Below are positions 1-49,811 of a stretch of 64,000 nucleotides of DNA, piece after piece. This DNA comes from Candidatus Falkowbacteria bacterium (GTDB lineage Bacteria; Patescibacteriota; Patescibacteriia; Patescibacteriales; WJLG01): assembly GCA_963747695.1 (NCBI GenBank), contig CAVVFV010000008.1:203592-267591 (forward strand), in the 5' to 3' direction. Every line of letters begins with the position of its first letter. Within the stretch, counting starts at the first letter, position 1. Under the pieces are notes generated by a model that was given only the letters and a program-made list of their open reading frames with translations, was not told the DNA's origin and did not search any database. Position numbers and translations under genes: made by a program.

Positions 1-336
1 CGTCCGGAAATATCGCTGCGCGAATTGATCCAATATGCCGCGCTGGTCAAGGATATTAATTTTCTCGGGCTGGAAAAAGGCAAAATCCCGATCGTCACCG
101 CTCATCAGGTCAAAGGGCTTGAATTCGATTATGTCTTCATCATCGGGATGAACGAATATATTTTCCCGATCAATAAATCCGATCTGGAAGAAGAAAAAAG
201 ATTATTTTATGTGGCGATGACTCGCGCCAAGAAAAAAATCTTTATTTCCTACAGCCAATATAATGACAACGGGTACACGGCGACGAAGAGCCGGTTTATA
301 GATTATATTGACAGCAAACATATAAATTTTGTCTAA
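1..336 (+). CDS. UvrD/PcrA/Rep-family (SF1) DNA helicase, C-terminal fragment; 5' end lies left of the window
   Basis: Frame open from base 1 to TAA 334-336; SF1 helicase C-terminal motifs VTAHQVKGLEFDYVFIIG and RLFYVAMTRAKKKIFISY. Confidence 0.75.
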   Translation, partial: RPEISLRELIQYAALVKDINFLGLEKGKIPIVTAHQVKGLEFDYVFIIGMNEYIFPINKSDLEEEKRLFYVAMTRAKKKIFISYSQYNDNGYTATKSRFIDYIDSKHINFV

Positions 337-514
337 CAATTAATTTTTAAATTTTTGTAATTTTTAAAAAAATCATAATTTTTAATTTTTAATCCGGCTG
401 CAAATGGTTTTAAAAATTAGAAATTAAGACCTTAAAATTTTTTAAAAATTATAAAATTAAAAATTTCATATTGTGCTATAATAAAATTTATAATTCATAA
501 TTAATAATTTATAA
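337..514. repeat. AT-only word-repeat spacer (aattttt / ataaatt words, partly palindromic)
   Basis: Read directly; related AT-only words recur at 4862-4965, 12901-12929, 24751-24786, 27988-28031, 47781-47815, 50261-50292. Confidence 0.5.
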
Positions 515-874
515 TTGAACATGACAAGTATCCAAGAAGTCTTCGACCGTATCCAAAAAACCAGAAAAGAGCAGAAAGAATTAAAAGCAATGTATCGCGA
601 CGCCTTGAATAATTCCGGCGCTTATCAGCGCTCGCTGGAAGAATTGAAGAAATTAAAAGATGAAAAGCGGAAATACGAAGAGGGGATTAAGAAAGAATTT
701 TCTTCCGAATTCGATAAGCTGGAGATCTTAAAGAACGAATTGATGAATGACGGCCAGCTGCTTTCGGATATGGTGGTTTCCCAAGTTGCCAAGGGCCAGA
801 AGATTGAGATTCAGGACGAGTTCGAAACAAAATATGAGCCGATTTTTTCGGTCAGATTTAAGAAAATCGGCTAA
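515..874 (+). CDS. hypothetical K/E-rich coiled-coil protein (119 aa)
   Basis: Intact ORF followed by hairpin terminator; no recognisable motif. Confidence 0.45.
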   Translation: MNMTSIQEVFDRIQKTRKEQKELKAMYRDALNNSGAYQRSLEELKKLKDEKRKYEEGIKKEFSSEFDKLEILKNELMNDGQLLSDMVVSQVAKGQKIEIQDEFETKYEPIFSVRFKKIG

Positions 875-893
875 GATAAAGTAAAATAATACC

Positions 894-920
894 AAAACCG
901 CCAGAACAGGGCGGTTTTGT
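894..920 (+). terminator. rho-independent terminator candidate
   Basis: aaaaccgcc / ggcggtttt stem (894-902 / 910-918) 20 nt after the stop. Confidence 0.5.
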
Positions 921-921
921 G

Positions 922-950
922 TTGACAAAATATCTAAAATATGATAAGGT
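922..950 (+). promoter_or_regulatory. sigma70-like promoter candidate
   Basis: TTGACA 922-927, 17-nt spacer, TAAGGT 945-950, upstream of 1025 gene. Confidence 0.4.
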
Positions 951-1024
951 AGCCTGATTTTGTACATTCACATAATCTAGATATTATAACCCATCTTGGC
1001 TCAAGTCGGGCCGCTGGAGGAGAA

Positions 1025-1984
1025 ATGAAAACCTTTATTCTCGTTTGCAACGTGTTATTGCCGGTTTCTCTTTTGGTCGGCCTGATGCTCTGGATTTTCA
1101 GGCCGCAAATCGAGAAAGAATTTACGCTGGCGGGAGGAAAAGTTTTGATGAGAATTCTGAAAGATGCGATGCAACCCCGGCCTGTTGCCAGTACGCCGCA
1201 GGAGGACTCGCTGAAATTCCCGGTCAGGCAGATGTCTTTTGAGAACGATAATATTTTCGGAGAATATTCGGCCGCGGCAACACCGATCTGCCAGCCGGTG
1301 GTTTATCAGACCACGCCTGTCCCGGTTGCGGAAAAGGTTGCGGTGGTCAAGAAGACTGTCACCAAAAAGGGCAAGGCTCTGGGAATTCAGTTAAGAACGC
1401 CCAAGCTCGACCCTAAGACGGAAGAGCAGATTCAAACATCGGTTGACGCGGGAATTGCCAGGCTGCCGTTCATCATTGAGCACTTTGGCAAAATCGTGGA
1501 AGACACCTGCTCCCAGAAGGCGATTGATCCTGATTTGGAGTTCGCCAAGATCGCCGTTGAATCCCGCGGCTACATTAATGCGGTCAGCGATTCCGGGGCG
1601 ATGAGTCTGGAACAGTTGATGCTTAAAACCGGCCGGCACTTGTTGGCCTTGCGCGGAATTTACGTCAATGACGAAGAAGTGCTGAAAGTGATGCTGCGCG
1701 ATCCTTACCTGAATATTTCGCTGGGGACGGATCATTTTCTTATCAGTATGCAGTTGTTCAACGATCCGGTGAAAGCTCTGGTCGGCTATGAGGCCGGAGA
1801 CGATCACGTCTTGAGTCAAATCAGGAAATTCGGCGGAGACGTGGAAGTTCCGTACTATCGCAAGATTTACGGCATCTATGTTTGGCTTAAAGAGCATCCG
1901 GAGCTTAGACAAAATCGGGGATTGCCGATCGATCTCCGGATGAGAGCGCCAAGAGAGGCCATCCAAATGGCCGAAGTTCGCTAA
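1025..1984 (+). CDS. membrane-anchored protein with SLT-like lytic transglycosylase domain
   Basis: N-terminal TM helix; AKIAVESRGYINAVSDSGAMSLEQLM resembles the E-S...GLMQ core of SLT domains; GGAGGA SD upstream. Confidence 0.5.
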   Translation: MKTFILVCNVLLPVSLLVGLMLWIFRPQIEKEFTLAGGKVLMRILKDAMQPRPVASTPQEDSLKFPVRQMSFENDNIFGEYSAAATPICQPVVYQTTPVPVAEKVAVVKKTVTKKGKALGIQLRTPKLDPKTEEQIQTSVDAGIARLPFIIEHFGKIVEDTCSQKAIDPDLEFAKIAVESRGYINAVSDSGAMSLEQLMLKTGRHLLALRGIYVNDEEVLKVMLRDPYLNISLGTDHFLISMQLFNDPVKALVGYEAGDDHVLSQIRKFGGDVEVPYYRKIYGIYVWLKEHPELRQNRGLPIDLRMRAPREAIQMAEVR

Positions 1985-1990
1985 AAGTAC

Positions 1991-2022
1991 GCCCTGTTTA
2001 CTAACGTAAACGGGGCTTTTTT
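1991..2022 (+). terminator. rho-independent terminator
   Basis: ccctgtttac / gtaaacgggg stem followed by T6 (2017-2022). Confidence 0.7.
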
Positions 2023-2037
2023 GTTGTCTGTTTAGTA

Positions 2038-2066
2038 TTGACTTATTGTCAAAAATATGCTATTAT
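2038..2066 (+). promoter_or_regulatory. sigma70-like promoter candidate
   Basis: TTGACT 2038-2043, 17-nt spacer, TATTAT 2061-2066. Confidence 0.5.
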
Positions 2067-2134
2067 ATAGATACGATAAACAGTGTTCTTTCCCAATGAA
2101 ATAAGCCAAAAATACCCAAACGAGAGGATAAAAA

Positions 2135-2767
2135 ATGAAAGCTCTATTCATTATTATCGTGTTAGCCATCGCCTTCGTGGCAGTATTTGCGCCACGGGAA
2201 AGCGGAACAGCAATTTGTACCGCATTCGTTAATGCCAAACCCGTCGCCGTGAAAGTGGCAGATGCTATCGGCGGTTTAACCCAGGAAATTTTGATCGCAC
2301 TCAAAAAAGCCGGACAGCAGAAAAATTTTAATGCCGACTCGATCGTGACGCAAAGCGGTTATGCTAAAGTGGCAAAAACCGTCCAGGCCAAATGGGGAAG
2401 ATACATCGATTCAATCGCCCTCTGTTACGGAATACCTGCCAAACTGGTGATTGCCAAAATCTCTTATGAATCTCTGGGCAAACCTGACACAGTGGGCAAA
2501 GCCGGAGAAATCGGTCTGACGCAGATGAAGCCGACGACAGCCGCGCCGCTTGGTTATTCCCGGCAAGACCTTTTCAACCCGAGGAAGAACATCAAGGCGT
2601 TCTGCCAGTATTTTTCCGGCCTTAAGGCTAAAAGAGGAACTGACGCCGATGCGATCGTCGCTTACACTTGGGGCGATAGCGCTTATCAAAAAGCGATTAA
2701 TCTCGCCGGATGCGCCGAAAACGTCCATTGCTACGAAATCGTAGCCGCAATTCAAAAAACCTTGTAA
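2135..2767 (+). CDS. exported lytic transglycosylase (SLT domain)
   Basis: N-terminal hydrophobic anchor; ISYESLGKPDTVGKAGEIGLTQMKP = catalytic E-S ... GLTQ(M) SLT signature. Confidence 0.65.
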   Translation: MKALFIIIVLAIAFVAVFAPRESGTAICTAFVNAKPVAVKVADAIGGLTQEILIALKKAGQQKNFNADSIVTQSGYAKVAKTVQAKWGRYIDSIALCYGIPAKLVIAKISYESLGKPDTVGKAGEIGLTQMKPTTAAPLGYSRQDLFNPRKNIKAFCQYFSGLKAKRGTDADAIVAYTWGDSAYQKAINLAGCAENVHCYEIVAAIQKTL

Positions 2768-2770
2768 CCC

Positions 2771-2815
2771 ATACCCTTTGTTCACAATCGTGAGCAAAGG
2801 GTATTATTTTATTTA
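2771..2815 (+). terminator. rho-independent terminator
   Basis: ataccctttgttcac / gtgagcaaagggtat stem, T-rich tail. Confidence 0.7.
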
Positions 2816-2996
2816 TTAAAAGATGAGAATGAAGAAGTAAAAATTTATTTAAGCGGTCGGAAAGGCGAAGAGCTGATTTTAAGCAAGCAATTTTTTTCTT
2901 GCCAAAAGCCTATTATTAGTCTATTATATAAATGAAAAATGAAAATTTTTAACTATAAAATATTTTTTCATTTTGAGATTTTATTTTTTCATTCCT

Positions 2997-4862
2997 ATGA
3001 TAACCGCCCAAGAATTACGCCAAAAATATTTCCAATTTTTTCAGTCCAAGGGGCATAAATTGATTCCTTCGGCTTCTTTGCTTCCGGAAAATGATCCAAC
3101 TGTTTTATTCAATACCGCCGGTATGCAGCCGCTGGTTCCTTATCTGCTGGGCGAAACGCACCCGGAAGGCAAGCGGCTGGTTGACGCGCAGAAATGTTTG
3201 CGTACCGACGATATCGAAGAAGTCGGCGATACCACTCACCATACTTTTTTTGAAATGCTCGGCAATTGGTCGCTGGGCGATTATTTCAAGCAAGAAGCGA
3301 TCAATTGGAGTTGGGAATTTCTAACCGATCCGGCTTGGCTCGGATTGGATAAGAATCGCTTGGCCTGTTCGGTTTTTGCCGGCGATGCTGATGCCTCGTT
3401 CGACGCGGAAGCTCATGAAATTTGGAAAAAACTGGGGATGGATGAAAAACGGATCGCCCGACTGCCCAAAAAAAATAATTGGTGGGGGCCGGCCGGAGTT
3501 ACCGGACCCTGCGGCCCGTGTTCGGAAATGTTTTATTGGGTGGGAGATCCGAACCAGGTGCCCGCCGGCTTCAATGATGATAATCCGCTTTGGGTGGAAA
3601 TCTGGAACGATGTTTTTATGCAGTATAATAGGATAAACCGCGGCACTATCCCGCTTAGCGGGACCGCCCATCCGAATGAAAACAATAAAGGAGATTTCAC
3701 TTTTGAGCCGCTAAAACAAAACAATGTCGACACCGGCATGGGTTTGGAAAGAACGTTGGCCACTTTGAACGGGCTGGCTGATAATTATTTAACCGACGTT
3801 TGGACAGGCTTGATCGGCAAGATCGAAGAATTATCAGGTAAAAAATATTTCGAATCTGATGTGATTAAACGTCTAATGAGGATTGTCGCCGATCATATCA
3901 AAGCGGCGACTTTTATCATCGGCGATGAAAAAGGCGTTACCCCTTCAAATACCGGTGCCGGCTATATCGTCCGCCGGCTATTGCGGCGCGCCATAATTCA
4001 CGGCTATCGCTTGGGCATTAAGAAAGGCGGTTATTGGGTTTATCAGATCGCTGAAGTTGTGATCGGAATTTATCGTGAAGCTTATCCGGAATTAGCGAAG
4101 AATCAGGAATATATCAAGAAGAATATCGAAGCCGAGGAAGGGAAATTTGAAAAAACTTTGGAAAACGGGCTTAAAGAATTCAATGAACAATGCGATACTT
4201 TATTGTGCCGGATCGATGCCAATGCCGATTTGCACGTGACCATGCCGGGGGAAGTGGTCTTCAAGCTTTTTGCGACTTACGGTTTTCCCGTCGAGTTGAT
4301 CCGCGAGATCGCCCGGGAGAGAAAAATTGTCATTGACGAAGCGGGCTTCGCGGAAGAATTCAAAAAACACCAGGACCTTTCCCGCACCGCCGCCGCCGGA
4401 ATGTTCAAAGGCGGTTTGGCCGATGCTTCGGAAGAAACGAAAAAACTGCATACGGCCGCGCATCTTTTGCTGGCGGTTTTGCGGAAAGTTTTGGGCGACC
4501 AGATCTTCCAGAAGGGAAGCAACATCACTCCCGAACGTTTGCGATTTGATTTTTCTCATCCGGCTAAAATGACTCCGGAACAAATTGCCGAAGTGGAGCG
4601 ATTGGTCAATGAAGCGATCCAAAAAGATCTGCCGATCATCTGCGAAGAAAAACCTCTGGCGGAAGCGAAGGCCGAAGGCGCGATGGGAGTTTTCGAATCC
4701 AAATACGGCGAGAAAGTCAAAGTTTACAAAATGGGTGAAGTGTCGCAGGAGATTTGCGGTGGCCCGCATGCCTCACATACCGGAGAACTTGGCCATTTCA
4801 AGATTATTAAAGAAGAGAGTTCAAGTTCCGGAGTTAGGAGGATTAAGGCGGTTTTGGAGTGA
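2997..4862 (+). CDS. alaS: alanine--tRNA ligase, short form ending right after the editing domain
   Basis: FFQSKGHKLIPSASL, FNTAGMQP, WGPAGVTGPCGPCSEMF, editing-site HTAAHLL and CGGPH; ATG 2997 preferred over TTG 2973. Confidence 0.9.
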   Translation: MITAQELRQKYFQFFQSKGHKLIPSASLLPENDPTVLFNTAGMQPLVPYLLGETHPEGKRLVDAQKCLRTDDIEEVGDTTHHTFFEMLGNWSLGDYFKQEAINWSWEFLTDPAWLGLDKNRLACSVFAGDADASFDAEAHEIWKKLGMDEKRIARLPKKNNWWGPAGVTGPCGPCSEMFYWVGDPNQVPAGFNDDNPLWVEIWNDVFMQYNRINRGTIPLSGTAHPNENNKGDFTFEPLKQNNVDTGMGLERTLATLNGLADNYLTDVWTGLIGKIEELSGKKYFESDVIKRLMRIVADHIKAATFIIGDEKGVTPSNTGAGYIVRRLLRRAIIHGYRLGIKKGGYWVYQIAEVVIGIYREAYPELAKNQEYIKKNIEAEEGKFEKTLENGLKEFNEQCDTLLCRIDANADLHVTMPGEVVFKLFATYGFPVELIREIARERKIVIDEAGFAEEFKKHQDLSRTAAAGMFKGGLADASEETKKLHTAAHLLLAVLRKVLGDQIFQKGSNITPERLRFDFSHPAKMTPEQIAEVERLVNEAIQKDLPIICEEKPLAEAKAEGAMGVFESKYGEKVKVYKMGEVSQEICGGPHASHTGELGHFKIIKEESSSSGVRRIKAVLE

Positions 4863-9068: not shown

Positions 9069-9186
9069 ATAATACGAATACCACGAATTATACGCGAATA
9101 CTACGAACGGCAAACGGAAACGAATAATTCGTTAAATAGTTCGCGGTATCGCGAAAAATTAGTAGTATTCGCATCATGATATTTAT
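9069..9186. repeat. B-family ~120-bp palindromic element
   Basis: aatacgaataccacgaatt...cgcgaatactacgaa ... ttcgcggtatcgcgaaaaattagtagtattcgcatcat; homologous to 34863-34980 and 51541-51659. Confidence 0.75.
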
Positions 9187-9534
9187 ATGGAAAGAAAGTT
9201 ACACATAATTGACGCGGAAGGAAAAGCGATCGGCCGTCTGGCTACTCAGATTGCCACGATTTTACGCGGCAAAAATAAAGTTTCTTATCGTCCTCATCTG
9301 GACGAGGGCGATTGCGTCCAAGTGATCAATGCCGATAAGGTCAAGATCACCGGCAAGAAATTGCAACAGAAGAAATATTATCGCGTTTCCCAATATCCGG
9401 GCGGTCTTAAGGAAACCAGCTTGGAAGAATTGATGGCCAAAAAACCCGGCGAGGCTTTGAAAAAAGCGGTCAAGCAGATGCTGCCGAACACCAAATTGCG
9501 CCCGGGAATGTTAAAAAGATTGATTATTAAGTAA
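9187..9534 (+). CDS. rplM: 50S ribosomal protein L13 (short, 115 aa)
   Basis: IIDAEGKAIGRLATQIATILRGKNK...GGLKE...AVKQMLPNTKL. Confidence 0.9.
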   Translation: MERKLHIIDAEGKAIGRLATQIATILRGKNKVSYRPHLDEGDCVQVINADKVKITGKKLQQKKYYRVSQYPGGLKETSLEELMAKKPGEALKKAVKQMLPNTKLRPGMLKRLIIK

Positions 9535-9610
9535 ATTTTGATAAATTCTATAATCCAAATCTAAAAAAATTCGTGGATTTGGATGAATTTGTAGATTAGG
9601 ATTATATTTT

Positions 9611-10099
9611 ATGCCTACGAAAAAGACAACCAAGAAGTCCGAAGCGGCTGCTCCTAATGTTGCTCCGCATAAAGAAGTCGCGGAAGTTAAGGAAGAAATC
9701 TCTTCGACTAAAGGAAAATATATCAAGGCCATCGGCCGCCGCAAGACCGCCTCGGCTCAGGTTCGCGTTTATCTTACCGGTAAAGGTGAAATTATTGTTA
9801 ACGGCAAACCGGTGGAGAAATATTTTGATGAAGACCGCGCCGCCATCTGCGTTCAGCCTTTAAAATTGACCGGTGTTGGCAAGGATGTGGATATTTCCGT
9901 CTTGTGCAAAGGCGGCGGAGTCAACTCCCAAGCCGAAGCGATGCGCCATGGTCTGGCCCGCGTCCTGATCCTTTTGGATCCGGAATTGAACGGGGCGATC
10001 CGCGCCAAAGGCTGGATGACCCGCGACTCCCGCAAGGTGGAAAGAAAGAAACCTGGTCTTAAGAAAGCCAGAAGAGCTCCGCAATGGAGCAAGCGCTAA
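9611..10099 (+). CDS. rpsI: 30S ribosomal protein S9 with ~30-aa N-terminal extension
   Basis: AIGRRKTASAQVRVY...GGGVNSQAEAMRHGLARVL...DSRKVERKKPGLKKARRAPQWSKR. Confidence 0.9.
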   Translation: MPTKKTTKKSEAAAPNVAPHKEVAEVKEEISSTKGKYIKAIGRRKTASAQVRVYLTGKGEIIVNGKPVEKYFDEDRAAICVQPLKLTGVGKDVDISVLCKGGGVNSQAEAMRHGLARVLILLDPELNGAIRAKGWMTRDSRKVERKKPGLKKARRAPQWSKR

Positions 10100-15093: not shown

Positions 15094-16620
15094 ATGAAGA
15101 GGAGGGTCGTTATTTTTGTTGCCTGCTGGTTTCTGGCCGGCGGCATAGTTTTAGCTTCGTTTTTGCCGAAAGACTGGATGTACTTCGGCCTTTATTATTT
15201 TAGCGCCCTAATATTTTTCTTGGTTCTTGCGGCCTGGTTTTGGCGAAAGAAGAATGCGCGTGCCATTTTAATTTGGGCGGCTTTTTTATTTTTCGGTATT
15301 TGGCGATTTGCCGTCAGTTTGCCGGTCGATTCGTCGGATAAGATTTGGTTTTACAACGGCCATAAAATCGAATTCATCGGCGTGGTGGCCGGCGAACCGG
15401 CGGCGCGAGGCAAGAATCAAGAGTTGGAAATGAAAAGTTTGGCAACGGCCCCCCTCCTTTTTAAGGAGGGGTCTGGGGGTGGTTCGGAACGAATAGTTGA
15501 AGGGAAAGTTTTAGTGATGGCAGCGCTTTATCCGCAATATGATTACGGCGAAGTTTTGCGAATCACCTGCAAATTGAAGCGGCCGCAAAATTTTGACGGT
15601 TTCGATTACGAAAAATATCTGGCAGCGCAGGGAATCTATTCGACCTGCAGTTTTCCGCAGATTGAAATTCTGCCCGATAAATTTTTGTCGCCGCCGGTCT
15701 TGGCGGAGAAAAAAAGCTTATCGCGTTTTAGCTGGCTGTGGGGTGGAATTTTTTATGTCCGGGAAAAATTAAGCGCCACAATCGACAGCGGTCTGACCGA
15801 ACCCGAGGCCGGCCTGCTCAAAGCTTTTTTGTTGAACGATCCGACCGTGCCTGACGATTTGAACATTTCTTTCCGCCAGAGCGGCTTGGCGCATATCGTC
15901 GCGATTTCCGGCTCGCACATCTCGGAGCTGATCGGCATCATTTTTTTCTGCCTGTTGTTTTTCGGTTTGAACCGTCGCCATGCTTTCTGGTTCTGCGTGC
16001 CGGTGATAATTTTTTACGTGGCGATGATCGGCGCTCCGGCTTCGGCTCTGCGAGCGGGGATAATGGGATTTTTAGTTTTATTGGCAATGTATTTGGGGCG
16101 CTTGGCGCGATTGGATTATACTTTAGCGCTGGCCGCAGCCGGCATGCTGTTAATTAATCCGCTGCTGGTGATCGCTGATGCCGGATTTCAGTTATCCTTC
16201 TTGGCGGTTTTGGGAATGATCTATCTTTATCCGGTTTTTGATCAATGGCTTGCGAGGTTTTACGAAAACAAAAATTCAACCACCCCCAGACCCCTCCTTG
16301 GAAAGGAGGGGAGTTTGCCGCAACGCGTCATTAAAATAATTTGCCAGACGGCCGCGCTGACGATCGCCGCCCAGGTTTTTACCGCGCCGATTTTGATTTT
16401 TGGGTTTCACCAAATTTCCCTGGTTGCGCCGATTGCCAACTTGTTCGCGCTTTGGTCCGCGCCGTTCATTATGATTTCCGCCTTCATTGCCATGACCGTA
16501 TCGGCAATAATGCCAGCCGGCGCGGTCTATTTTTTCCTGCCCACTGATATTTTAGTTAAATATCTTATCGCCGTAGCGCAAATTTCCGCCAGCTTGCCGT
16601 TCGCTTATTGGAAATTTTAG
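15094..16620 (+). CDS. comEC: ComEC/Rec2-family DNA internalisation channel (no metallo-beta-lactamase domain)
   Basis: Polytopic; competence-domain block FRQSGLAHIVAISGSHIS; carries two in-frame hairpin elements. Confidence 0.8.
   Translation: MKRRVVIFVACWFLAGGIVLASFLPKDWMYFGLYYFSALIFFLVLAAWFWRKKNARAILIWAAFLFFGIWRFAVSLPVDSSDKIWFYNGHKIEFIGVVAGEPAARGKNQELEMKSLATAPLLFKEGSGGGSERIVEGKVLVMAALYPQYDYGEVLRITCKLKRPQNFDGFDYEKYLAAQGIYSTCSFPQIEILPDKFLSPPVLAEKKSLSRFSWLWGGIFYVREKLSATIDSGLTEPEAGLLKAFLLNDPTVPDDLNISFRQSGLAHIVAISGSHISELIGIIFFCLLFFGLNRRHAFWFCVPVIIFYVAMIGAPASALRAGIMGFLVLLAMYLGRLARLDYTLALAAAGMLLINPLLVIADAGFQLSFLAVLGMIYLYPVFDQWLARFYENKNSTTPRPLLGKEGSLPQRVIKIICQTAALTIAAQVFTAPILIFGFHQISLVAPIANLFALWSAPFIMISAFIAMTVSAIMPAGAVYFFLPTDILVKYLIAVAQISASLPFAYWKF
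15451..15484 (-). repeat. K-family GC-rich hairpin element inside comEC (inverted copy)
   Basis: cccctcctttttaaggaggggtctgggggtggtt; its reverse complement differs from 16278-16311 at 2 loop bases only. Confidence 0.85.
16278..16311 (+). repeat. K-family GC-rich hairpin element inside comEC
   Basis: aaccacccccagacccctccttggaaaggagggg; encodes TTPRPLLGKEGS in frame. Confidence 0.85.
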
Positions 16621-24425: not shown

Positions 24426-24737
24426 AAAATTCACCTCTCGAGAGGGGTGGACTCGCGTCGCGCGAGGACGGGGTGTGTTACTGCAGGTTATTAAGGTCAA
24501 AAACATTTGCTACTTTTTTTAAAAAAAGTAGCACAAAAAACTGCTCGCAGGAGAAATTTTGGGACGCTCCGCTATCCCGCCGAGGCGGGACTAGCAAAAT
24601 TTCAAACTTGCTCGCTAGACGCTCGCTCAGACAGTGAAATTTTGCACGGCTTCTACGCTGCGTGATTACGGAAATTTTCCAATGCGCGCTACAAAGAAGT
24701 AAATTAATTTTGATAAATAAAAAAAGCGCCCGAACTC
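24424..24737 (+). repeat. J-repeat copy A (~0.3 kb structured direct repeat)
   Basis: Starts in the stop codon of the upstream gene; shares long blocks with 30721-31075 (tttgcYacttttttt aaaaaaagtRgc, ctccgctatcccgcc, aattttgcacggcttc, cgtgattacggaaattttccaatgcgcgctacaa). Confidence 0.85.
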
Positions 24738-28031: not shown

Positions 28032-30722
28032 ATGGAAACCGCCTATCCCTTAAGTGAAAGAAAATTAGATAAGATTTTTAATCCGAAGACGATTGCCGTC
28101 ATCGGCGCTTCCGACCGCGAAGGCGGCGTGGGCAACGCGCTGATGAAGAATCTGATCGGCAATAATTTCGGCGGCATCGTTTATCCGGTTAATCCGGCGC
28201 GCGAGAGCGTGGCAGGCATCAAAGCTTACCCGAAAGTTTCCGACATTCCCGATAAAATCGATTTGGCGATCATCGCCACTCCGGCGCCTACCGTTACCGC
28301 CATCGTCGAGGAATGCGGCCAGGCCGGAGTTTCCGGAATAATTATTATTTCCTCGGGGTTTGACGAGATCGGCGCCAAGGGCCATAAGATGAGCGAGGAA
28401 ATTTTGTCGACCGCCCGCGAATATGGGATGCGCATCATCGGCCCGAACTGCCTGGGATTTATCCGGCCGTCGATTCATTTGAACGCCAGCTTTGCCAACA
28501 AGATGGCCTTGCCCGGTCATATCGCTTTCATTTCTCAGTCTGGCGCGCTCTGCACGGCCATTCTTGACTGGTCGTTGAAAAATAACGTCGGCTTTTCGCA
28601 ATTCGTTTCCATCGGTTCCAACATCGATATTTCTTTCCATGATCTGATTGATTATTTCGGCGACGATCCGGAAACGGACAGTATTTTGATTTATATGGAA
28701 TCGCTGACCGAGGCGCGGAAATTCATGTCAGCTGCCCGCGCTTTTTCCCGGAAAAAACCGATCGTGGTTTTGAAAGTCGGGCGCACCGAAGCCGGTTCCC
28801 AGGCGGCTAAGTCGCATACCGGCGCGATCACCGGCAACGATTCCGTTTATGACGCGGCTTTCGAGCGCGCGGGAATAATCCGCGTTGATGGCGCTTTGGA
28901 TTTGTTCCACGTGGCCAAGATGCTGGCGATGCAGCAACGTCCGGCGGATAACCGTGTCGCGGTCATTACCAATGCCGGCGGTCCGGGCGCGATTGCCGCC
29001 GACTGGCTGGCTATGAAAGGCGGACGCTTGGCCCAATTATCCCATACCACCGTGGCCGAGCTGAAAAAATTCTTGCCGGCTGCCGCTTCCACAGTCAATC
29101 CGGTGGATATTTTGGGTGATGCCGATCAGCATCGTTACCGGCAAGCGGTGGAATTATGTCTGGCTGATCCGAACGTTGACGCGGCTTTGGTTATTCTGAC
29201 GCCGCAGGAGATGACCAGCCCGACCGATGTCGCCCGACAGATCGTTTCGATAAAAAATAAAACCGGCAAAACTATGTTCGCTTCCTGGATGGGCGGCGAT
29301 GACGTTGCCGAAGGGCGGGTGATTTTGGAAAAAGGGCACATCCCGATTTACCGCACTCCGGAGGAAGCAGTGGATATTTTTATGTATGTTGACAGTTATC
29401 GCCGGCGTTTGGAATTCTTGAAGGAAACTCCGGGGTCGGTGCCTCATGCTTTTCAGCCGAAGACAGAAAAGAATCGTGAGCTGATTGAAAAAGTTATTGC
29501 CGATCATCGCACTGTGATGACCGAAGCCGAAGCCAAGGAAATGATCGCCAATTATGGAATTCCGGTCGCCAAGAACGGTACAGCCAATTCGGCTACTGAA
29601 GCCGGAGCAATCGCTTTCCAGATCGGCTTCCCGGTAGTGATGAAAATTCTCTCGCCGGATATTTTGCATAAAACCGATATCGGCGGCGTGAAGTTGAATA
29701 TCAGTTCGCGCTCCGAAGCGGAAGCGGCCTATCATGAAATTCTGGCCGGCGCGAAAAAAGGCGCACCGAAAGCTAAGATTGATGGCGTCTTTGTCGAGGC
29801 AATGACCAAAAAACGTTATGAGCTGCTGATCGGCTGCAAGAAGGATGAAATTTTCGGCCCGGCGATCGTCTTCGGCATGGGCGGCGTAGCCGTCGAAGTC
29901 TTCCGCGACACGGCGGTCGGCTTGCCGCCTTTGAATATGTCTCTGGCTTTGAAGATGATCCAGGAAACCAAAATTTATAAATTACTGGCAGGCTATCGGG
30001 GCATACCGGGCGTGGATATTGAAGCGATCCAATTCTTGCTTTATAAATTCGCTTATCTGGTCGCTGATTTTCCCGAGATCAAAGAATTGGATATCAATCC
30101 GTTCGCGGTCGATGAGAACGGCGGCGTGGTTTTGGACGCCAAAGTTATTTTGGATGAAAAAGTTTTGGGCGTCAAACATAAGCCCTACGCGCATTTGGTA
30201 ATTTCCCCTTATCCCAAAGAGCTGGAAAAAAATATTGTTTTGAAAAATAAGAAAAAAGTTTTGTTGCGCCCGATCCGTCCGGAAGATGAAAAATTAGAGC
30301 AGGAAATGATCGATAATTTTTCCGCTCGCACCATGCGTGATCGTTTTTTGGGGAGAGTGGCTAAGGTCAATTTGGAGATGCTGCGCGGCTTCACCCAGAT
30401 CGATTATGACCGTGAGATCGCCCTGGTCGGCGTGTTGACGGAGCGCGGCCGGGTGCGTTTTATCGGCGTGGTCAGATTGATCGCCGATCCTTACAATGAA
30501 TCGGCTAGCATGGCGATCGCTATTGCCGATCCCTGGCAAGCGCTTGGTTTAGGCGGCGAGATGGTCGATTATATTTTGGATATCGCCCGCGTCCGCGGCT
30601 TGAAAAAAGTCTGGGCCGAATTTTTTCCATCCAACGAGCGGATGAAAAAGATTTTGACTAAACGGAATTTTACCCTCAAGGAGCGCGGCAAGACGATGAT
30701 CGGGGAATTGGAACTTGGATAA
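28032..30722 (+). CDS. Pat-like protein: ADP-forming acetyl-CoA synthetase (alpha+beta) fused to a C-terminal GNAT acetyltransferase
   Basis: CoA-binding IAVIGASDREGGVG, phosphohistidine loop AAKSHTGAITG, ATP-grasp region, GNAT tail LRPIRPEDE...; 896 aa. Confidence 0.85.
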   Translation: METAYPLSERKLDKIFNPKTIAVIGASDREGGVGNALMKNLIGNNFGGIVYPVNPARESVAGIKAYPKVSDIPDKIDLAIIATPAPTVTAIVEECGQAGVSGIIIISSGFDEIGAKGHKMSEEILSTAREYGMRIIGPNCLGFIRPSIHLNASFANKMALPGHIAFISQSGALCTAILDWSLKNNVGFSQFVSIGSNIDISFHDLIDYFGDDPETDSILIYMESLTEARKFMSAARAFSRKKPIVVLKVGRTEAGSQAAKSHTGAITGNDSVYDAAFERAGIIRVDGALDLFHVAKMLAMQQRPADNRVAVITNAGGPGAIAADWLAMKGGRLAQLSHTTVAELKKFLPAAASTVNPVDILGDADQHRYRQAVELCLADPNVDAALVILTPQEMTSPTDVARQIVSIKNKTGKTMFASWMGGDDVAEGRVILEKGHIPIYRTPEEAVDIFMYVDSYRRRLEFLKETPGSVPHAFQPKTEKNRELIEKVIADHRTVMTEAEAKEMIANYGIPVAKNGTANSATEAGAIAFQIGFPVVMKILSPDILHKTDIGGVKLNISSRSEAEAAYHEILAGAKKGAPKAKIDGVFVEAMTKKRYELLIGCKKDEIFGPAIVFGMGGVAVEVFRDTAVGLPPLNMSLALKMIQETKIYKLLAGYRGIPGVDIEAIQFLLYKFAYLVADFPEIKELDINPFAVDENGGVVLDAKVILDEKVLGVKHKPYAHLVISPYPKELEKNIVLKNKKKVLLRPIRPEDEKLEQEMIDNFSARTMRDRFLGRVAKVNLEMLRGFTQIDYDREIALVGVLTERGRVRFIGVVRLIADPYNESASMAIAIADPWQALGLGGEMVDYILDIARVRGLKKVWAEFFPSNERMKKILTKRNFTLKERGKTMIGELELG

Positions 30723-31075
30723 AAAATTCCCCTCTTGGGAGGGGTGCCGAGCCCGGCGAATAGGTGCGGGTTTATTCCCGACATTATTTCAAATATCTTT
30801 GCCACTTTTTTTAAAAAAAGTGGCGCAAAAAATCGCGCGCTGGACAAATTTCCTATCACTCCGCTATCCCGCCAATGCGGGACTAGCAAAATTGCTATAC
30901 TTGTCCCGCTTTTATTAATAATATTATAATAAGGAGGCGGGACTTCGAACAACGCAATTTTGCACGGCTTCCCTGTCCCGCCAGCGGCGGTGATACGCTT
31001 CGTGATTACGGAAATTTTCCAATGCGCGCTACAAGGAAATTTATTATTTTGACAAATAAAAAAGCGCCGGAACTC
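30721..31075 (+). repeat. J-repeat copy B
   Basis: Starts in the stop codon of the Pat-like gene; collinear with 24424-24737, with one extra inner hairpin gtcccgc...gcgggac. Confidence 0.85.
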
Positions 31076-31271: not shown

Positions 31272-31348
31272 AAAACCTTCCAGAAGAATGTGAAAGTGCA
31301 AGATTTGATATATTAATATAATATCATATTTAACTAATTTTGTCAATA

Positions 31349-33001
31349 ATGTGGGAATCGATTAAGAAAAATAGGGAAATCGCGGTTTTTATCGCATTTT
31401 TAATCATCGGGTTGGCTGTTTACGCCAACTCTTTTGGCAACCAGTTTTTTTGGGATGATAATGACGAGATCGTTAATAATATTTACGTCCAGCATTTTGA
31501 TGTCAGCAAGATGTTTTCGCAGAGCATGATTTCCGGCGCCGGGCAAACCGATAATTATTACCGGCCGATCCTGCTTTTGTCGTACGCCGTGGATTATCAG
31601 CTTTGGGGAATGAATCCGTTCGGTTTCAATCTGATCGATGTGCTGCTGCACATCTTTAACGCGTGGCTGATTTTTATTTTATTATATTTCCTTTTGTCGT
31701 TGCGGCAAACCGCGTCCACTGAACCACCCTCCAACTCCTCCTTTGAGAGGAAGGGGGTTTGGCTGGCGTTTTTGCCGGCGCTGATTTTTTTGGTTCACCC
31801 GCTAAACACCGAAGCGGTCGATTATGTTTCCGGGCGAGCCGACGTCTTGTACGCTTTTTGGGCGCTTTTATCGCTTTTATTCTATTATTATTTTTTTCAA
31901 GCCAAAAACGTCAAGGGTAAGATCATCAACTATTCGGTCGCGGTGGTTTTTTTTATTTTTTCCCTGCTTACCAAAGAAACGGCTGTCGTGCTGCCGTTCC
32001 TGGCCGTGCTGATGGAGTTGGTTTTCCTGGCCAAGGGTGATTGGCGGACCAAAACGAAAACGGCCGCCAAAAATTCCTGGCCGTTTTTTTTGGTTTTAGC
32101 AGTTTATCTCCTGCTGCATTTGACGGTTTTTAATTTCAGCCATCTGGCCGGCGTTCCGATCGGTTGTCAGGGGGAATATTGCTCTTTCGGGATCGTTAAG
32201 CGGTTTTTGGTTTTCGGATCGGTGACCTTGAATTATTTTCAGATTTTATTCGTGCCGCTCGGTTTACATATGGAAAGGGCGGTGACGGAGTTCGGTTCGG
32301 TTTATTCCTGGAAAACTCTGGCGGCCTGGTTCGCCGTGCTGGTCTGGGCGGCGGTAGCGGTCATCTTTTGGAAAAAATCCCGGAGCATCGCCTTCGGATT
32401 ATTTTGGTTCTTCATCCTGCTGCTGCCGACTTCGGGAATCTTAGTCAGGATGAATTATCCGACCTACGAGCATTTTCTTTATCTGCCGATGATCGGATTT
32501 TGGCTGGCCCTCGGCGGCTTGATCTGCCTCGCCGCTGATAACCTTAAAAACGACCGGGTTTTACTCTTGGCGAAGATATTATTTTATGTTATGCTAAGCG
32601 CTTGTGTGGTTTTTTGGGGAATCCTGACGATCCGGCGCAACTTGATCTGGCATGATCCGATAACTTTCTACGAAAATAATTTAAAGTATTCGCCGCAGAG
32701 TTTTATCGAGCATACTAATCTGGGAATCGCTTACGATAATGCCGGACGACCAACCGAAGCGATAGCCCAATATCGCCAAGCGATTGGCATTGATGATGTT
32801 TATCCGCAAGTGCATTACGATCTGGCCAACGCTCTGGTGGGAGCGCAACAATACGACCAGGCGGAAAAGGAATATTTGCTCGCCATCGCCATGGATCCGG
32901 AATTTATTTTGCCTTACCGGAGTTTATATGATTTGTATAGTTATTTAGGGGAGAAGGATGAGGCAGGAGAAATTTTAAAAAAGATGCCCGGCAATAATTA
33001 A
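31349..33001 (+). CDS. GT-C-like membrane glycosyltransferase with C-terminal TPR repeats (TMTC/PMT_2-like)
   Basis: First loop FFWDDNDEI ... NYYRPILLLSY; about 11 TM spans; TPR tail YDNAGRPTEAIAQYRQAIGIDD...YDQAEKEYLLAIAMDP. Confidence 0.7.
   Translation: MWESIKKNREIAVFIAFLIIGLAVYANSFGNQFFWDDNDEIVNNIYVQHFDVSKMFSQSMISGAGQTDNYYRPILLLSYAVDYQLWGMNPFGFNLIDVLLHIFNAWLIFILLYFLLSLRQTASTEPPSNSSFERKGVWLAFLPALIFLVHPLNTEAVDYVSGRADVLYAFWALLSLLFYYYFFQAKNVKGKIINYSVAVVFFIFSLLTKETAVVLPFLAVLMELVFLAKGDWRTKTKTAAKNSWPFFLVLAVYLLLHLTVFNFSHLAGVPIGCQGEYCSFGIVKRFLVFGSVTLNYFQILFVPLGLHMERAVTEFGSVYSWKTLAAWFAVLVWAAVAVIFWKKSRSIAFGLFWFFILLLPTSGILVRMNYPTYEHFLYLPMIGFWLALGGLICLAADNLKNDRVLLLAKILFYVMLSACVVFWGILTIRRNLIWHDPITFYENNLKYSPQSFIEHTNLGIAYDNAGRPTEAIAQYRQAIGIDDVYPQVHYDLANALVGAQQYDQAEKEYLLAIAMDPEFILPYRSLYDLYSYLGEKDEAGEILKKMPGNN
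31722..31757 (+). repeat. diverged K-family element inside the TPR-glycosyltransferase
   Basis: aaccaccctccaactcctcctttgagaggaaggggg versus consensus aaccaccccNagNcccctccttNNaaaggagggg. Confidence 0.5.
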
Positions 33002-45276: not shown

Positions 45277-46095
45277 ATGAAATTAATATCTTGGAACGTC
45301 AACGGCATCAGGGCCGCGGTTAAAAAAGGCTTTGTCGATTTTTTGCAAAACGAAAGGCCGGATATCTTGTGTTTGCAGGAAATCAAGATTTCCGATTCAG
45401 CTAAGCGCGAAGAAGTTTTTGATTTTGCCGGTTACCAGGAATTTTGGCATTCGGCCGTCAAGCCGGGGTATGCCGGGACGATGACCTTAGTTAGGGATAA
45501 TTTAATCAGTGAAACGGCCGTAACACACCCCGTCTCGCGAGGCGCGAGCCACCCCTCTCGAGAGGGGAATAAATTTATCGGGCTCGTGGAATTTCCCGAT
45601 GATCCGGAAGGCCGGGTGCAGATTTTGGAATTCGAGAAATTTTATTTGTGCAACATCTATTTTGTCAACGCCCAGCGCGGTTTGACCAGGCTGAAACATA
45701 AAATGGAATGGGAGGATCGCCTGTTGAAGTTCTTGAAAAAATTGGATAAGAAAAAATCGCTGGTCATTTGCGGCGATTATAATGTCGCTCACGAGGAAAT
45801 CGATATCGCCCGTCCCAAAGAGAATAAAAAAAATGCCGGTTTCACCCCGGAGGAGCGGGCCTGGATGACTAAATTTCTTAAAGCCGGTTTCGTCGACGTC
45901 TTCCGTAACCAGCATCCGGACAAGATCCAATATAGTTGGTGGACTTTTTATGCCAATGCCCGGGCCCGCAACATCGGCTGGCGCATTGACTATTTTTGCG
46001 TTTCAGCGTATCTTGTTAAGTCAGTCAAAAGTTCTTTTATAATGGATCAAGTCCAGGGATCGGACCATTGTCCGGTCGGCGTCATTTTAAAATAA
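45277..46095 (+). CDS. xth: exodeoxyribonuclease III with a 17-codon repeat-element insertion
   Basis: SWNVNGIRA, LCLQEIK, EGRV, CGDYNVAH, WRIDYF, GSDHCPV. Confidence 0.9.
   Translation: MKLISWNVNGIRAAVKKGFVDFLQNERPDILCLQEIKISDSAKREEVFDFAGYQEFWHSAVKPGYAGTMTLVRDNLISETAVTHPVSRGASHPSREGNKFIGLVEFPDDPEGRVQILEFEKFYLCNIYFVNAQRGLTRLKHKMEWEDRLLKFLKKLDKKKSLVICGDYNVAHEEIDIARPKENKKNAGFTPEERAWMTKFLKAGFVDVFRNQHPDKIQYSWWTFYANARARNIGWRIDYFCVSAYLVKSVKSSFIMDQVQGSDHCPVGVILK
45520..45570 (+). repeat. K'-type GC-rich element inserted in frame in xth
   Basis: gtaacacaccccgtctcgcgaggcgcgagccacccctctcgagaggggaat; nearly the reverse complement of intergenic 24430-24481. Confidence 0.85.

Positions 46096-46958: not shown

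Positions 46959-49811
<2,853 letters not shown>

Follow-up and report, generated by a model that had tools for sequence, protein, structure and literature searches.

Two short palindromic sequences lying in frame within the comEC gene of a Candidatus Falkowbacteria bacterium are proposed, with a probability of roughly 0.7, to be copies of a REP-like selfish hairpin repeat for which DUF559 proteins are the candidate partner nuclease. The repeat unit (type 1) comprises an unpaired 9-nt head, AACCACCCC, followed by a linker of 3-4 nt and a 9-bp hairpin with one C-rich and one G-rich arm. An initial annotation of the window, by which is meant the whole 64-kb stretch of DNA analysed, had likened the pair to the Rickettsia palindromic elements (RPEs), selfish sequences inserted in frame into protein genes, and both the alignment of orthologues and the counting of copies turned out in favour of that suggestion. 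Among the non-coding features of bacterial genomes, REP-type repeats rank with the most abundant, and of their classes the GTAG one alone is known to have an enzyme (RAYT); if DUF559 is reproducibly associated with such repeats, a very common, uncharacterised protein family would gain a testable function.

Two hairpin elements within comEC

The host ORF, with Pfam matches to DUF4131 and Competence (E 2e-24 and 2e-49), contains both elements with its reading frame unbroken, in agreement with the initial annotation.

15094-16620, plus strand: host gene, ComEC/Rec2-family competence protein of 508 aa (DUF4131 and Competence)
15451-15484, minus strand: type-1 element copy 1, at ComEC site 1, residues 120-131 (PLLFKEGSGGGS)
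16278-16311, plus strand: type-1 element copy 2, at ComEC site 2, residues 395-406 (STTPRPLLGKEG)

Copy 1 is built from the head AACCACCCC, the linker CAGA, and the 9-bp hairpin CCCCTCCTT/AAGGAGGGG. The positions and sequences first reported for this inverted 34-nt pair are exact; when one copy is reverse-complemented, 32 of 34 positions are equal and both mismatches fall in the loop. In dinucleotide-preserving shuffles, the chance expectation was 0.01 matches to the hairpin pattern and 0.00 to the head pattern, and the full 34-mer with up to 11 mismatches gave 0 matches in 30 shuffles. The predicted single-stranded DNA fold of each ComEC copy is a 9-bp hairpin at -9.5 to -9.7 kcal/mol, with z from -2.0 to -2.7.

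The reading of both ComEC sites as insertions was upheld by orthologues sharing 70-77% identity with the window ComEC, from which the corresponding residues are missing. The site 1 residues are lacking in P0012, P0016, and P0021, and the site 2 insert in at least 11 orthologues (including P0014-17, P0019, P0021, and P0024), where the sequence of the empty site reads FYEGR--PAIIK. P0016 is doubly empty, with an insert at neither site. Subtraction of 33 nt at site 1 brings the window ComEC to the length of its counterpart in the relative L201, and the ComEC of both L201 and L202 carries an element of a second, compound kind (type 2, described below) at the codon position of site 2. In the AlphaFold model of ComEC (AF2), pLDDT falls below 50 over no long segment other than the two element peptides: residues 120-132 at site 1 are modelled as coil between OB-fold strands, and residues 395-406 at site 2 as coil between the helices H363-390 and H408-437.

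The pair was also considered as the ends of a composite transposon, which was rejected on the grounds that the copies enclose the conserved ComEC core. Their geometry resembles that of the DUF559 cassettes discussed later, an orientation that has a 1 in 4 chance.

Further copies within the window

The motif is not confined to the pair first noticed. The 64 kb hold four type-1 and three type-2 copies against 0 expected, the additional ones being two of type 1 and three of type 2, one of which lies inside ExoIII.

49436-49468, plus strand: type-1 copy 3, 33 nt, in the LeuRS anticodon-binding domain, in a frame unlike that of the ComEC copies, with a peptide of 12 letters
31722-31757, plus strand: type-1 copy 4, decayed, in a TPR-containing membrane protein (ORF 31340-33001), encoding EPPSNSSFERKG
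45522-45569, plus strand: type-2 compound element, in frame in an exonuclease III-like ORF (45277-46095), encoding VTHPVSRGASHPSREGN
24430-24479, minus strand: type-2 compound element, intergenic
30727-30772, minus strand: type-2-like element, decayed, intergenic, just 3' of ORF 28032-30722

Copy 3 differs from the ComEC copies by one deleted base and one C>T change. The gap at its site is 8 residues against one distant solved LeuRS structure and 2 against another, an ambiguity that was resolved by close orthologues: P0121, which is the closest at 76% identity, is exactly 11 residues (33 nt) shorter at this site, as are about 48 others. At the same spot, LeuRS orthologue P0160 bears a type-2-like insert. 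The LeuRS gene of this assembly carries frameshifts. Copy 4 has seven mismatches and folds no better than shuffled sequences; its site is a 3-residue turn in most homologues and a type-2-like insert in P0361 (68% identity).

The type-2 element within the exonuclease gene has the layout AACACACCC-CGTC-hairpin 1 (CTCGCG/CGCGAG)-CCA-hairpin 2 (CCCCTC/GAGGGG)-AA, with a predicted fold of -12.1 kcal/mol (z -3.2). Compared with the solved ExoIII structures 8igi_A and 5cfe_A, the protein has about 18-21 inserted residues here. The intergenic element at 24430-24479 shares 72% identity over 99 nt with the first upstream copy in L201, and occupies the position at which this relative has four tandem copies and a DUF559 gene. 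A solo CRISPR repeat was rejected as an identity for the elements, given that the window copies are solitary and that the arrays found elsewhere (L022 and L201) have spacers of 8-17 nt, where those of CRISPR arrays are unique and about 30 nt long.

All five intragenic copies are thereby shown to be insertions relative to orthologues. All orthologues used were at most 79% identical, and no recent insertion event was therefore caught. The host loops tolerate extra residues; their length is hypervariable among orthologues of ComEC, LeuRS, and the TPR membrane protein, and the matching loops of orthologues have been struck by other members of the family.

Conservation at the DNA level

Inside genes, the four type-1 copies use four different combinations of orientation and frame, and their conservation is thus one of DNA rather than of peptide; copies that lie in unrelated genes and frames agree at 32/34 and 31/34 nt. 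A motif selected at the protein level was rejected on the same difference in frame, and a terminator was rejected on the intragenic location of copies and the lack of a T-run. On average, 4.3 of the 6 reading frames of an element are open. Since most frames are without stop codons, insertions that keep the frame and fall in tolerated loops spare the gene, and such inserts are read as Pro/Gly/Ser/Leu-rich loops predicted to be disordered.

Distribution across phyla

The initial annotation had envisaged an element special to this lineage, a view that has to be given up: the core AACCACCCC-NNN-CCCCTCCTT-loop-AAGGAGGGG, searched as a pattern with 23 specified bases, is present in at least 120 genome stretches from many phyla. 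The identical core occurs in cultured isolates (Pontibacter, Hymenobacter, and Pedobacter) and in many independent assemblies. Stem pair 9, which was not imposed by the search, is Watson-Crick in 97.8% and has seven compensatory variants, against a mean of 87.9% and a maximum of 91.8% in a permutation control. At stem pair 8, 148 of 151 copies have T-A, a degree of conservation exceeding the needs of structure alone. RNAalifold predicted no pairs from a MAFFT alignment of 53 elements, in which variable loops shift the register of the 3' arm, and Rfam returned nothing relevant to the element at E up to 10.

The head was also followed independently of the hairpin sequence. Of 253 CCACCCC heads, 103 precede a perfect hairpin 6 bp or more in length, against 3.2 in shuffled tails; these hairpins have 35 distinct arms, and the head AACCACCCC stays fixed even where the hairpin sequence varies. 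The type-1 linkers include CAGA, TAG, TAA, and CAA, the 3' ends are AG, AA, or GA, and the loops are 3-6 nt long. Inspection of the flanks of the 151 copies revealed no target-site duplication and no defined insertion footprint. Some copies form head-inward doublets with no gene between them (L007, L028, L063, and L066). Viral carriage was rejected, with only 11 matches in viral sequences (IMG/VR) and no clear DUF559 adjoining them.

Association with DUF559 endonuclease genes

The inverted element copies repeatedly bracket small Vsr-like PD-(D/E)XK endonuclease genes, the flanked ORFs matching Pfam DUF559 at E 1e-25 to 1e-32. When all ORFs of 120 element loci were clustered, DUF559 was the only family flanked by elements, and no transposase-like family recurred. 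Approached from the protein side, 36 of 80 metagenome DUF559 loci have an element within 150 nt, the remaining 44 having none under the detector used. Element density is 1.12/kb near DUF559 vs 0.084/kb elsewhere, a 13-fold local enrichment, and 47 of 56 flanking elements have the head pointing toward the gene.

In the syntenic Patescibacteria relatives L201 and L202, the DUF559 gene follows three to four tandem type-2 copies and ends within an inverted copy; in L202, the sequence directly 5' of its start codon is a 3' arm (AAGGAGGGGA). At a syntenic site, relatives of the window vary in whether they have the cassette. Elsewhere, cassettes are 87-98% identical in unrelated flanks, with the likeness stopping 15-30 nt beyond the hairpins, and a whole cassette lies in frame within MmeI-like genes (L018 and L023): the hairpin-bounded cassette is a discrete unit in unrelated contexts. 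The 64-kb window itself has no DUF559 gene, which counts against the model, and a search for a DUF559 remnant at 24430-24479 found none.

The association is not limited to Patescibacteria; it recurs at E. coli ycjD and in the Neisseria relatives of PDB 3HRL. The 3' end of ycjD, a DUF559 gene, is a head and hairpin followed by a dispersed repeat of like architecture, CCCCTCACCC-TAA-CCCTCTCCCC-AGA-GGGGCGAGGG, in which the head closes with CACCC, the linker is TAA, and the hairpin is of the C/G kind. This repeat is present in 5,426 of 5,426 E. coli genomes at a median of 16 copies. In Neisseria, CC(A/G)CCCCGTC-hairpin units flank the DUF559 gene. Both at L137 and at E. coli ycjD, 5'-truncated tandem copies of the DUF559 3' end together with the element are seen. 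No earlier description of a link between DUF559 and hairpin repeats was found in the searchable literature.

Proposed mechanism and alternative explanations

It is hypothesised that DUF559 would bind the head and hairpin, on either an extruded cruciform or single-stranded DNA, and nick there, whereupon repair or replication could copy the element to new sites. The logic would be that of REP/REPIN elements with the RAYT transposase, carried out by an enzyme of a different fold, and the window copies would be non-autonomous passengers of an enzyme whose gene lies in another part of the genome or was lost. To the step by which DUF559 recognises, nicks at, and thereby spreads the element, we would on its own give about even odds. 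The broader proposition, that DUF559 proteins (YcjD-like, of Vsr fold) may be the missing partner nucleases of tagged hairpin repeats throughout bacteria, including CGTC REPs, RPE-4/6, the ycjD-adjacent repeat, and the AACCACCCC elements, is put forward tentatively and falls a little short of an even chance.

The association of DUF559 with the elements fits equally well with DUF559 genes homing into pre-existing hairpins. In its full form, this alternative would make the hairpins landing pads that spread by some other route, a free-standing DUF559 homing gene targeting the head and hairpin and inserting between or beside copies. The Vsr/DUF559 clade already counts a group I intron homing endonuclease among its members (PMC3424549), and REPs are known to be targeted by insertion sequences (PMC1525189). 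The gene-less head-inward doublets resemble unoccupied sites, and the 5'-truncated tandem copies at L137 and ycjD fit repair-mediated copying. However, hundreds of gene-less copies, intragenic ones included, would be left without a mechanism of dispersal, and no second enzyme family recurs beside the elements; we consider the homing account unlikely, if worth taking seriously.

A signal beneficial to the host, either a ComEC-linked DNA uptake sequence or an RNA hairpin resembling a Shine-Dalgarno (SD) or anti-SD sequence that acts in translation or mRNA stability, is much harder to sustain. That comEC itself has two copies speaks for it, as do the 3' arm directly before the DUF559 start codon in L202 and the argument that REPs 3' of genes act as RNA elements (PMC3733652). 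The SD and anti-SD likeness pointed out in the initial annotation likewise speaks for it as a matter of sequence, the arms containing AAGGAGG and its complement; any function of this likeness is hypothetical. Against such a role stand the use of both orientations and of several reading frames by elements within ORFs, the absence of a T-run after the hairpin, the lack of an Rfam match, and the decay of copy 4. DNA uptake sequences occur about once per kb in Neisseria and Haemophilus, and the 7 copies per 64 kb found here are far under that density; on this count, and on a core shared by unrelated phyla, the uptake sequence was rejected, and a host signal of any kind appears highly improbable. 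The notion that the sequences are not insertions at all, being ancestral low-complexity loops that converged or an artefact of metagenome assembly, could draw on the hypervariable length of the host loops and the LeuRS frameshifts of this assembly, but it would have to accommodate near-identical DNA across unrelated genes and frames, residues precisely missing in orthologues, and the same core in cultured isolates and independent assemblies, and is scarcely credible.

Should the broader proposition on DUF559 be true, it would amount to a second REP-enzyme partnership, mechanistically apart from RAYT/REPIN and repeatedly adding short disordered loops to essential proteins. Although the genomes of Patescibacteria are tiny and leave next to no room between genes, they still harbour selfish repeats, which are parked in disordered loops of such essential proteins as ComEC, LeuRS, and ExoIII. 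Intragenic repeats of this kind make proteins vary in length and give rise to artefacts in annotation and alignment.

Comparison with known systems

Small dispersed repeats of cyanobacteria, reportedly described by Elhai et al. in 2008, are said to be nested, hairpin-forming, sometimes intragenic, and free of a transposase, and the GC clusters of yeast mitochondrial genes are likewise very small hairpin-forming mobile repeats; to our knowledge, neither has a nuclease partner. Unlike MITEs, which have terminal inverted repeats around a short core and a target-site duplication, the window copies are single hairpins, and the flanks of the 151 copies showed no duplication on inspection; gene-less doublets do occur in other genomes. 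The ycjD-adjacent repeat, which we take to be the 'Box C' dispersed repeat of E. coli, shares its architecture with the window element and differs in the sequences of head and stem. RPE-1, reportedly introduced by Ogata et al. in 2000 as palindromic selfish DNA inside protein genes, translated as extra surface peptides, is about 100-150 bp long and restricted to Rickettsia. The elements described here, at 33-50 nt and pan-bacterial, are set apart from RPE-1 on these descriptions; in common with RPEs, the window copies lie within ORFs, leave the frame intact, and fall in tolerated loops.

A unit of 33-36 nt with a 9-bp GC-rich stem-loop and a conserved unpaired tag places the element among REPs in the generic sense. 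The GTAG REPs and REPINs with their RAYT, a Y1 HUH enzyme, offer a clear parallel in that one small nuclease gene sits between inverted copies of tag and hairpin (PMC3116915, PMC2817692), and the elements here are similarly dispersed as singlets and doublets. They differ in the tag (GTAG next to the stem in 0 of 151 copies), in a PD-(D/E)XK DUF559 in place of a HUH tyrosine transposase, and in a core found in many phyla. A DUF559-bracketed cassette, which the window is without, is present in L201, L202, 36 of 80 metagenome loci, E. coli, and Neisseria.

Of the known systems, the window elements come closest, on the best reading, to REPs with a CGTC tag and to Rickettsia RPE-4/6. Di Nocera, De Gregorio and Rocco (2013) grouped R. 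conorii RPE-4 and RPE-6 with Neisseria dRS3 as CGTC-tagged REPs, a class explicitly left without an enzyme (PMC3733652). Like the elements here, CGTC REPs are about 30-50 nt long, consist of an unpaired tag and a GC hairpin, occur in several phyla, often form head-to-head dimers, and include intragenic copies in tRNA synthetase and DNA repair genes; a flanking DUF559 gene has not been described for them. Type 1 departs from this class in having no CGTC (or TGTC/CCTC) tag abutting the stem and no 3-nt CCA tail, and in a 9-bp stem starting with CCCC, where the CGTC REP stem of 8-9 bp starts with A-T and encloses a loop of 4-5 nt. The type-2 stems, of 6-7 bp, are GC-only and fused to a second hairpin, unlike those of CGTC REPs. 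Nevertheless, the type-2 elements of the window, L201, and L202, as well as the Neisseria DUF559 units, have ...CCCCGTC, which contains the CGTC tag of that class; in the window elements and the Neisseria units, the tag directly precedes the stem and a CCA tail comes after it. In type 2, this CCA lies between hairpins 1 and 2. With both the CGTC tag and the CCA tail of the RPE-4/RPE-6 class present in type 2, the analogy with RPEs drawn in the initial annotation is closer than that annotation recognised.

Inverted element copies in comEC

Two inverted copies of a GC-rich hairpin element had been described within comEC in the initial annotation. Both coordinates hold, the frame is unbroken, and the copies are mutual reverse complements bar 2 loop bases. 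They belong to type 1 (a 9-nt head, a 3-4-nt linker, and a C-rich/G-rich hairpin), and the motif is not unique to ComEC, as further type-1 copies and a related compound element, type 2, are present in the window.

Element copies in the window and the ComEC host gene
15094-16620: ComEC/Rec2 ORF, 508 aa (Pfam DUF4131, E 1.9e-24; Competence, E 2e-49)
15451-15484: type-1 copy 1, inside the ComEC ORF, cccctcctttttaaggaggggtctgggggtggtt; residues 120-131, PLLFKEGSGGGS
16278-16311: type-1 copy 2, inside the ComEC ORF, aaccacccccagacccctccttggaaaggagggg; residues 395-406, STTPRPLLGKEG
24430-24479: type-2, intergenic
30727-30772: type-2, decayed, intergenic
31722-31757: type-1, decayed, in a TPR-containing membrane protein, read as EPPSNSSFERKG
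45522-45569: type-2, inside an exonuclease III-like ORF (in frame), encoding VTHPVSRGASHPSREGN
49436-49468: type-1, 33 nt, in the C-terminal LeuRS ORF, read as 12 residues

Each ComEC copy folds as single-stranded DNA into a 9-bp hairpin (-9.5 to -9.7 kcal/mol). The chance expectation for the matches is 0.00-0.01 in shuffled sequence. Type 2 is arranged as AAC(A/C)CACCC-CGTC-hairpin-CCA, followed by a second hairpin, CCCCTC..GAGGGG. The four type-1 copies occupy four different orientation/frame combinations, from which it follows that the DNA, not the peptide, is conserved. On the other side of the copy 1 hairpin, the head-like AACGGCCCC (15444-15452, 2 mismatches) lends it a head-hairpin-head' look that is probably coincidental.

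Insertion into tolerated loops

An alignment of 29 Patescibacteria ComEC homologues (47-79% identity) revealed that the site-1 residues are missing from several close homologues (P0012, P0016, and P0021) and the site-2 residues from at least 11. The reading as in-frame palindromic insertions is thereby upheld, and the ComEC finding is genuine. The same loops in other homologues carry related peptides (LLLKEGxGVV; [VIT]THP...) which at the nucleotide level are type-1 or type-2 copies. Two syntenic Patescibacteria relatives of the window, L201 and L202, both have a type-2 element at site 2 that begins at the codon position where the window type-1 copy also begins; L202 holds three copies at site 1, one truncated, and removal of 33 nt from window site 1 gives the length of the L201 ComEC. 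The P0016 contig (JGI 3300075153), from the sole relative in which neither ComEC site carries an insert, bears an rve-family integrase gene directly upstream of ComEC (9104-9988 of the listed locus).

Exactly 11 residues of LeuRS are missing from about 48 orthologues in addition to the closest one (76% identity), and in one relative this position bears a type-2-like insert. Compared with solved structures, the ExoIII element corresponds to about 18-21 inserted residues, and most homologues of the TPR protein have a 3-residue turn at the insert position. In an AlphaFold2 model of ComEC (pTM 0.67), pLDDT falls below 50 over just two long stretches, residues 120-132 (a coil between OB-fold strands) and 395-406 (a coil between two long helices), which coincide exactly with the element-encoded peptides. 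The inserts are thus tolerated in disordered loops.

LeuRS displays further peculiarities. A GC-rich stretch in its N-terminal part (47030-47075), encoding 14 residues directly before a conserved 12-residue sequence, may be another decayed insert. As assembled, LeuRS has an in-frame TAG (47757-47759) in region 47738-47812, which joins ORFs 46959-47759 and 47877-49811, and about 57 nt give canonical LeuRS sequence (19 residues) only when read in a different frame. A T5 run marks the first shift, and the original frame resumes within an (AATTATA)x4 heptamer repeat; assembly error, pseudogene, or recoding could account for this. Numerous CPR homologues of LeuRS are present in the database as called fragments of 300-500 aa, located on long contigs. 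A NUDIX hydrolase domain (PF00293, E 1.8e-10) has been inserted into the editing (CP1) region (about 48099-48470, residues 75-198 of ORF 47877-49811).

Spread and consensus of the family

A pattern of 23 specified bases, AACCACCCC N3-4 CCCCTCC N5-9 GGAGGGG, occurs in at least 120 genome stretches, including Bacteroidota (Pontibacter, Hymenobacter, Pedobacter, Prevotella), Thiomargarita with tandem arrays, Acidobacteriota, Patescibacteria, Nitrospinota, Ignavibacteria, Armatimonadota, a cyanobacterium, and others. Judged by these matches, the type-1 family is pan-bacterial. Among the matches listed, the consensus is AACCACCCC-YNN-CCCCTCCTT-loop(3-6)-AAGGAGGGG-(A/G)(A/G), flanks are lineage-specific, close inverted pairs are frequent, and an average of 4.3 of the six reading frames are stop-free. 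Stem pairs 8 and 9 were left free by the pattern; in the same listed matches, pair 8 is T-A in 148/151, and at pair 9 Watson-Crick pairing is seen in 97.8% (permutation mean 87.9%, maximum 91.8%), alongside 7 compensatory variants. Insertion, multicopy status, DNA-level conservation, and maintenance of the hairpin are all established for the element, for which Rfam gave no match.

Tandem arrays of type 1 (period 41 nt; Thiomargarita sp., L022 7128-7324) and of type 2 (period 50 nt; L201 15998-16190) have spacers that are too short for CRISPR.

Association with DUF559 genes

When the ORFs of all 120 listed element loci were clustered, small ORFs with inverted element copies on their flanks emerged from unrelated genomes (L001, L046, L099 twice, L111, L008, and L117), and the entire element-ORF unit lies in frame within MmeI-like genes in L018 and L023. 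The small ORFs have DUF559 as their Pfam match (E 1e-25 to 1e-32). In an independent set of 80 metagenome loci chosen by DUF559 protein similarity alone, an element lies within 150 nt of the DUF559 gene in 36, with a density of 1.12/kb close to the gene versus 0.084/kb in the rest of these loci, and 47 of the 56 flanking elements point their head towards it. The cassette reads hairpin-GGGGTGGTT-about 40 nt-ATG...stop-AACCACCCC-hairpin. The head is retained where the hairpin sequence is wholly different (e.g., GTCAGCC/GGCTGAC), and 103 of 253 CCACCCC heads run into a perfect hairpin of 6 bp or more, versus 3.2 in shuffled tails. Cassettes are 87-98% identical in unrelated flanks, similarity stopping 15-30 nt beyond the hairpins.

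The DUF559 gene is absent from the 64-kb window. In L201 and L202 (ComEC 75-77% identical), it lies a few kb from ComEC, with 3-4 tandem type-2 copies in front and its end inside an inverted copy; at the syntenic position in the window, with a 327-aa ORF on one side and the gene for acetyl-CoA synthetase on the other, a single type-2 copy (24430-24479) remains, together with a conserved downstream motif but no DUF559 gene. The cassette at this site is a presence/absence polymorphism. Association with DUF559 is demonstrated, and the cassette is shown to be both discrete and polymorphic.

The DUF559-less intergenic region has an additional GC hairpin at 24571-24595, TCCCGCCGAGGCGGGA, which is similar to type-2 hairpin 1. 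In L023 (OY969811.1, from an uncultured cyanobacterium), the MmeI-like restriction/methyltransferase ORF at 281-3724 (1148 aa) holds at least six element-derived peptides, one of 21 residues, and an entire DUF559 cassette in one open frame; L018 and L178 have a similar in-frame cassette in a different gene.

E. coli K-12 ycjD, annotated as a DUF559 protein, ends in a decayed head and hairpin and is followed (L214 about 4180-4440, minus strand) by a 5'-truncated duplicate of its last ~45 nt plus the element. The metagenome locus L137 shares this signature in a 5'-truncated tandem copy, hinting that copying started from the right end. Farther downstream lies CCCCTCGCCCCTCTGGGGAGAGGG-TTA-GGGTGAGGGG, which reversed gives head, TAA linker, and C/G hairpin; it is a dispersed repeat in 5,426/5,426 complete E. 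coli genomes (median 16 places per genome) and seems to resemble 'Box C'. Among Neisseria, relatives of PDB 3HRL (E 1e-13 to the L201 protein) have AACCGCCCCGTC- and AGCCACCCC(G/A)TC-hairpin units on their flanks. Downstream of N. meningitidis carA (L215 940-2833), the DUF559 gene sits within about 1.5 kb of gene-free DNA composed of arrays of several hairpin repeat types; dRS3 (ATTCCC..GGGAAT) was not detected there.

Proposed mechanism

DUF559 has a Vsr-like PD-(D/E)XK fold and its clade includes a homing endonuclease (PMC3424549). We infer that DUF559 may recognise the head plus hairpin and nick there, that the element would then be copied to new sites through repair or replication, and that selection would retain only those intragenic insertions which leave the frame intact, contain no stop codon, and sit in a tolerated loop. 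The main rival, that DUF559 genes home into hairpins which are themselves spread by other means, is considered unlikely.

Comparison with known repeat families

The palindromic-element reading of the initial annotation stands, in a wider setting than was proposed: a pan-phylum tagged-hairpin family tied to DUF559 is of more interest than the comEC insertions as first described. Literature on DUF559/ycjD offers only a predicted Vsr-like nuclease, and no report of the repeat-DUF559 association was found in the literature searched, the coverage of which is incomplete, and an earlier description may exist.

Di Nocera et al. (PMC3733652) divide REPs into a GTAG and a CGTC superfamily. CGTC REPs, to which Rickettsia RPE-4/6 and Neisseria dRS3 belong, carry a CGTC tag along with a CCA tail, are found within genes including those for tRNA synthetases and DNA repair, and "apparently lack a dedicated transposase" (PMC3733652). 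Type 1 has neither tag nor tail and is therefore filed as REP-like rather than as a CGTC REP. Type 2 resembles the CGTC REPs in both tag and tail, but differs in its shorter GC-only stems and its extra second hairpin.
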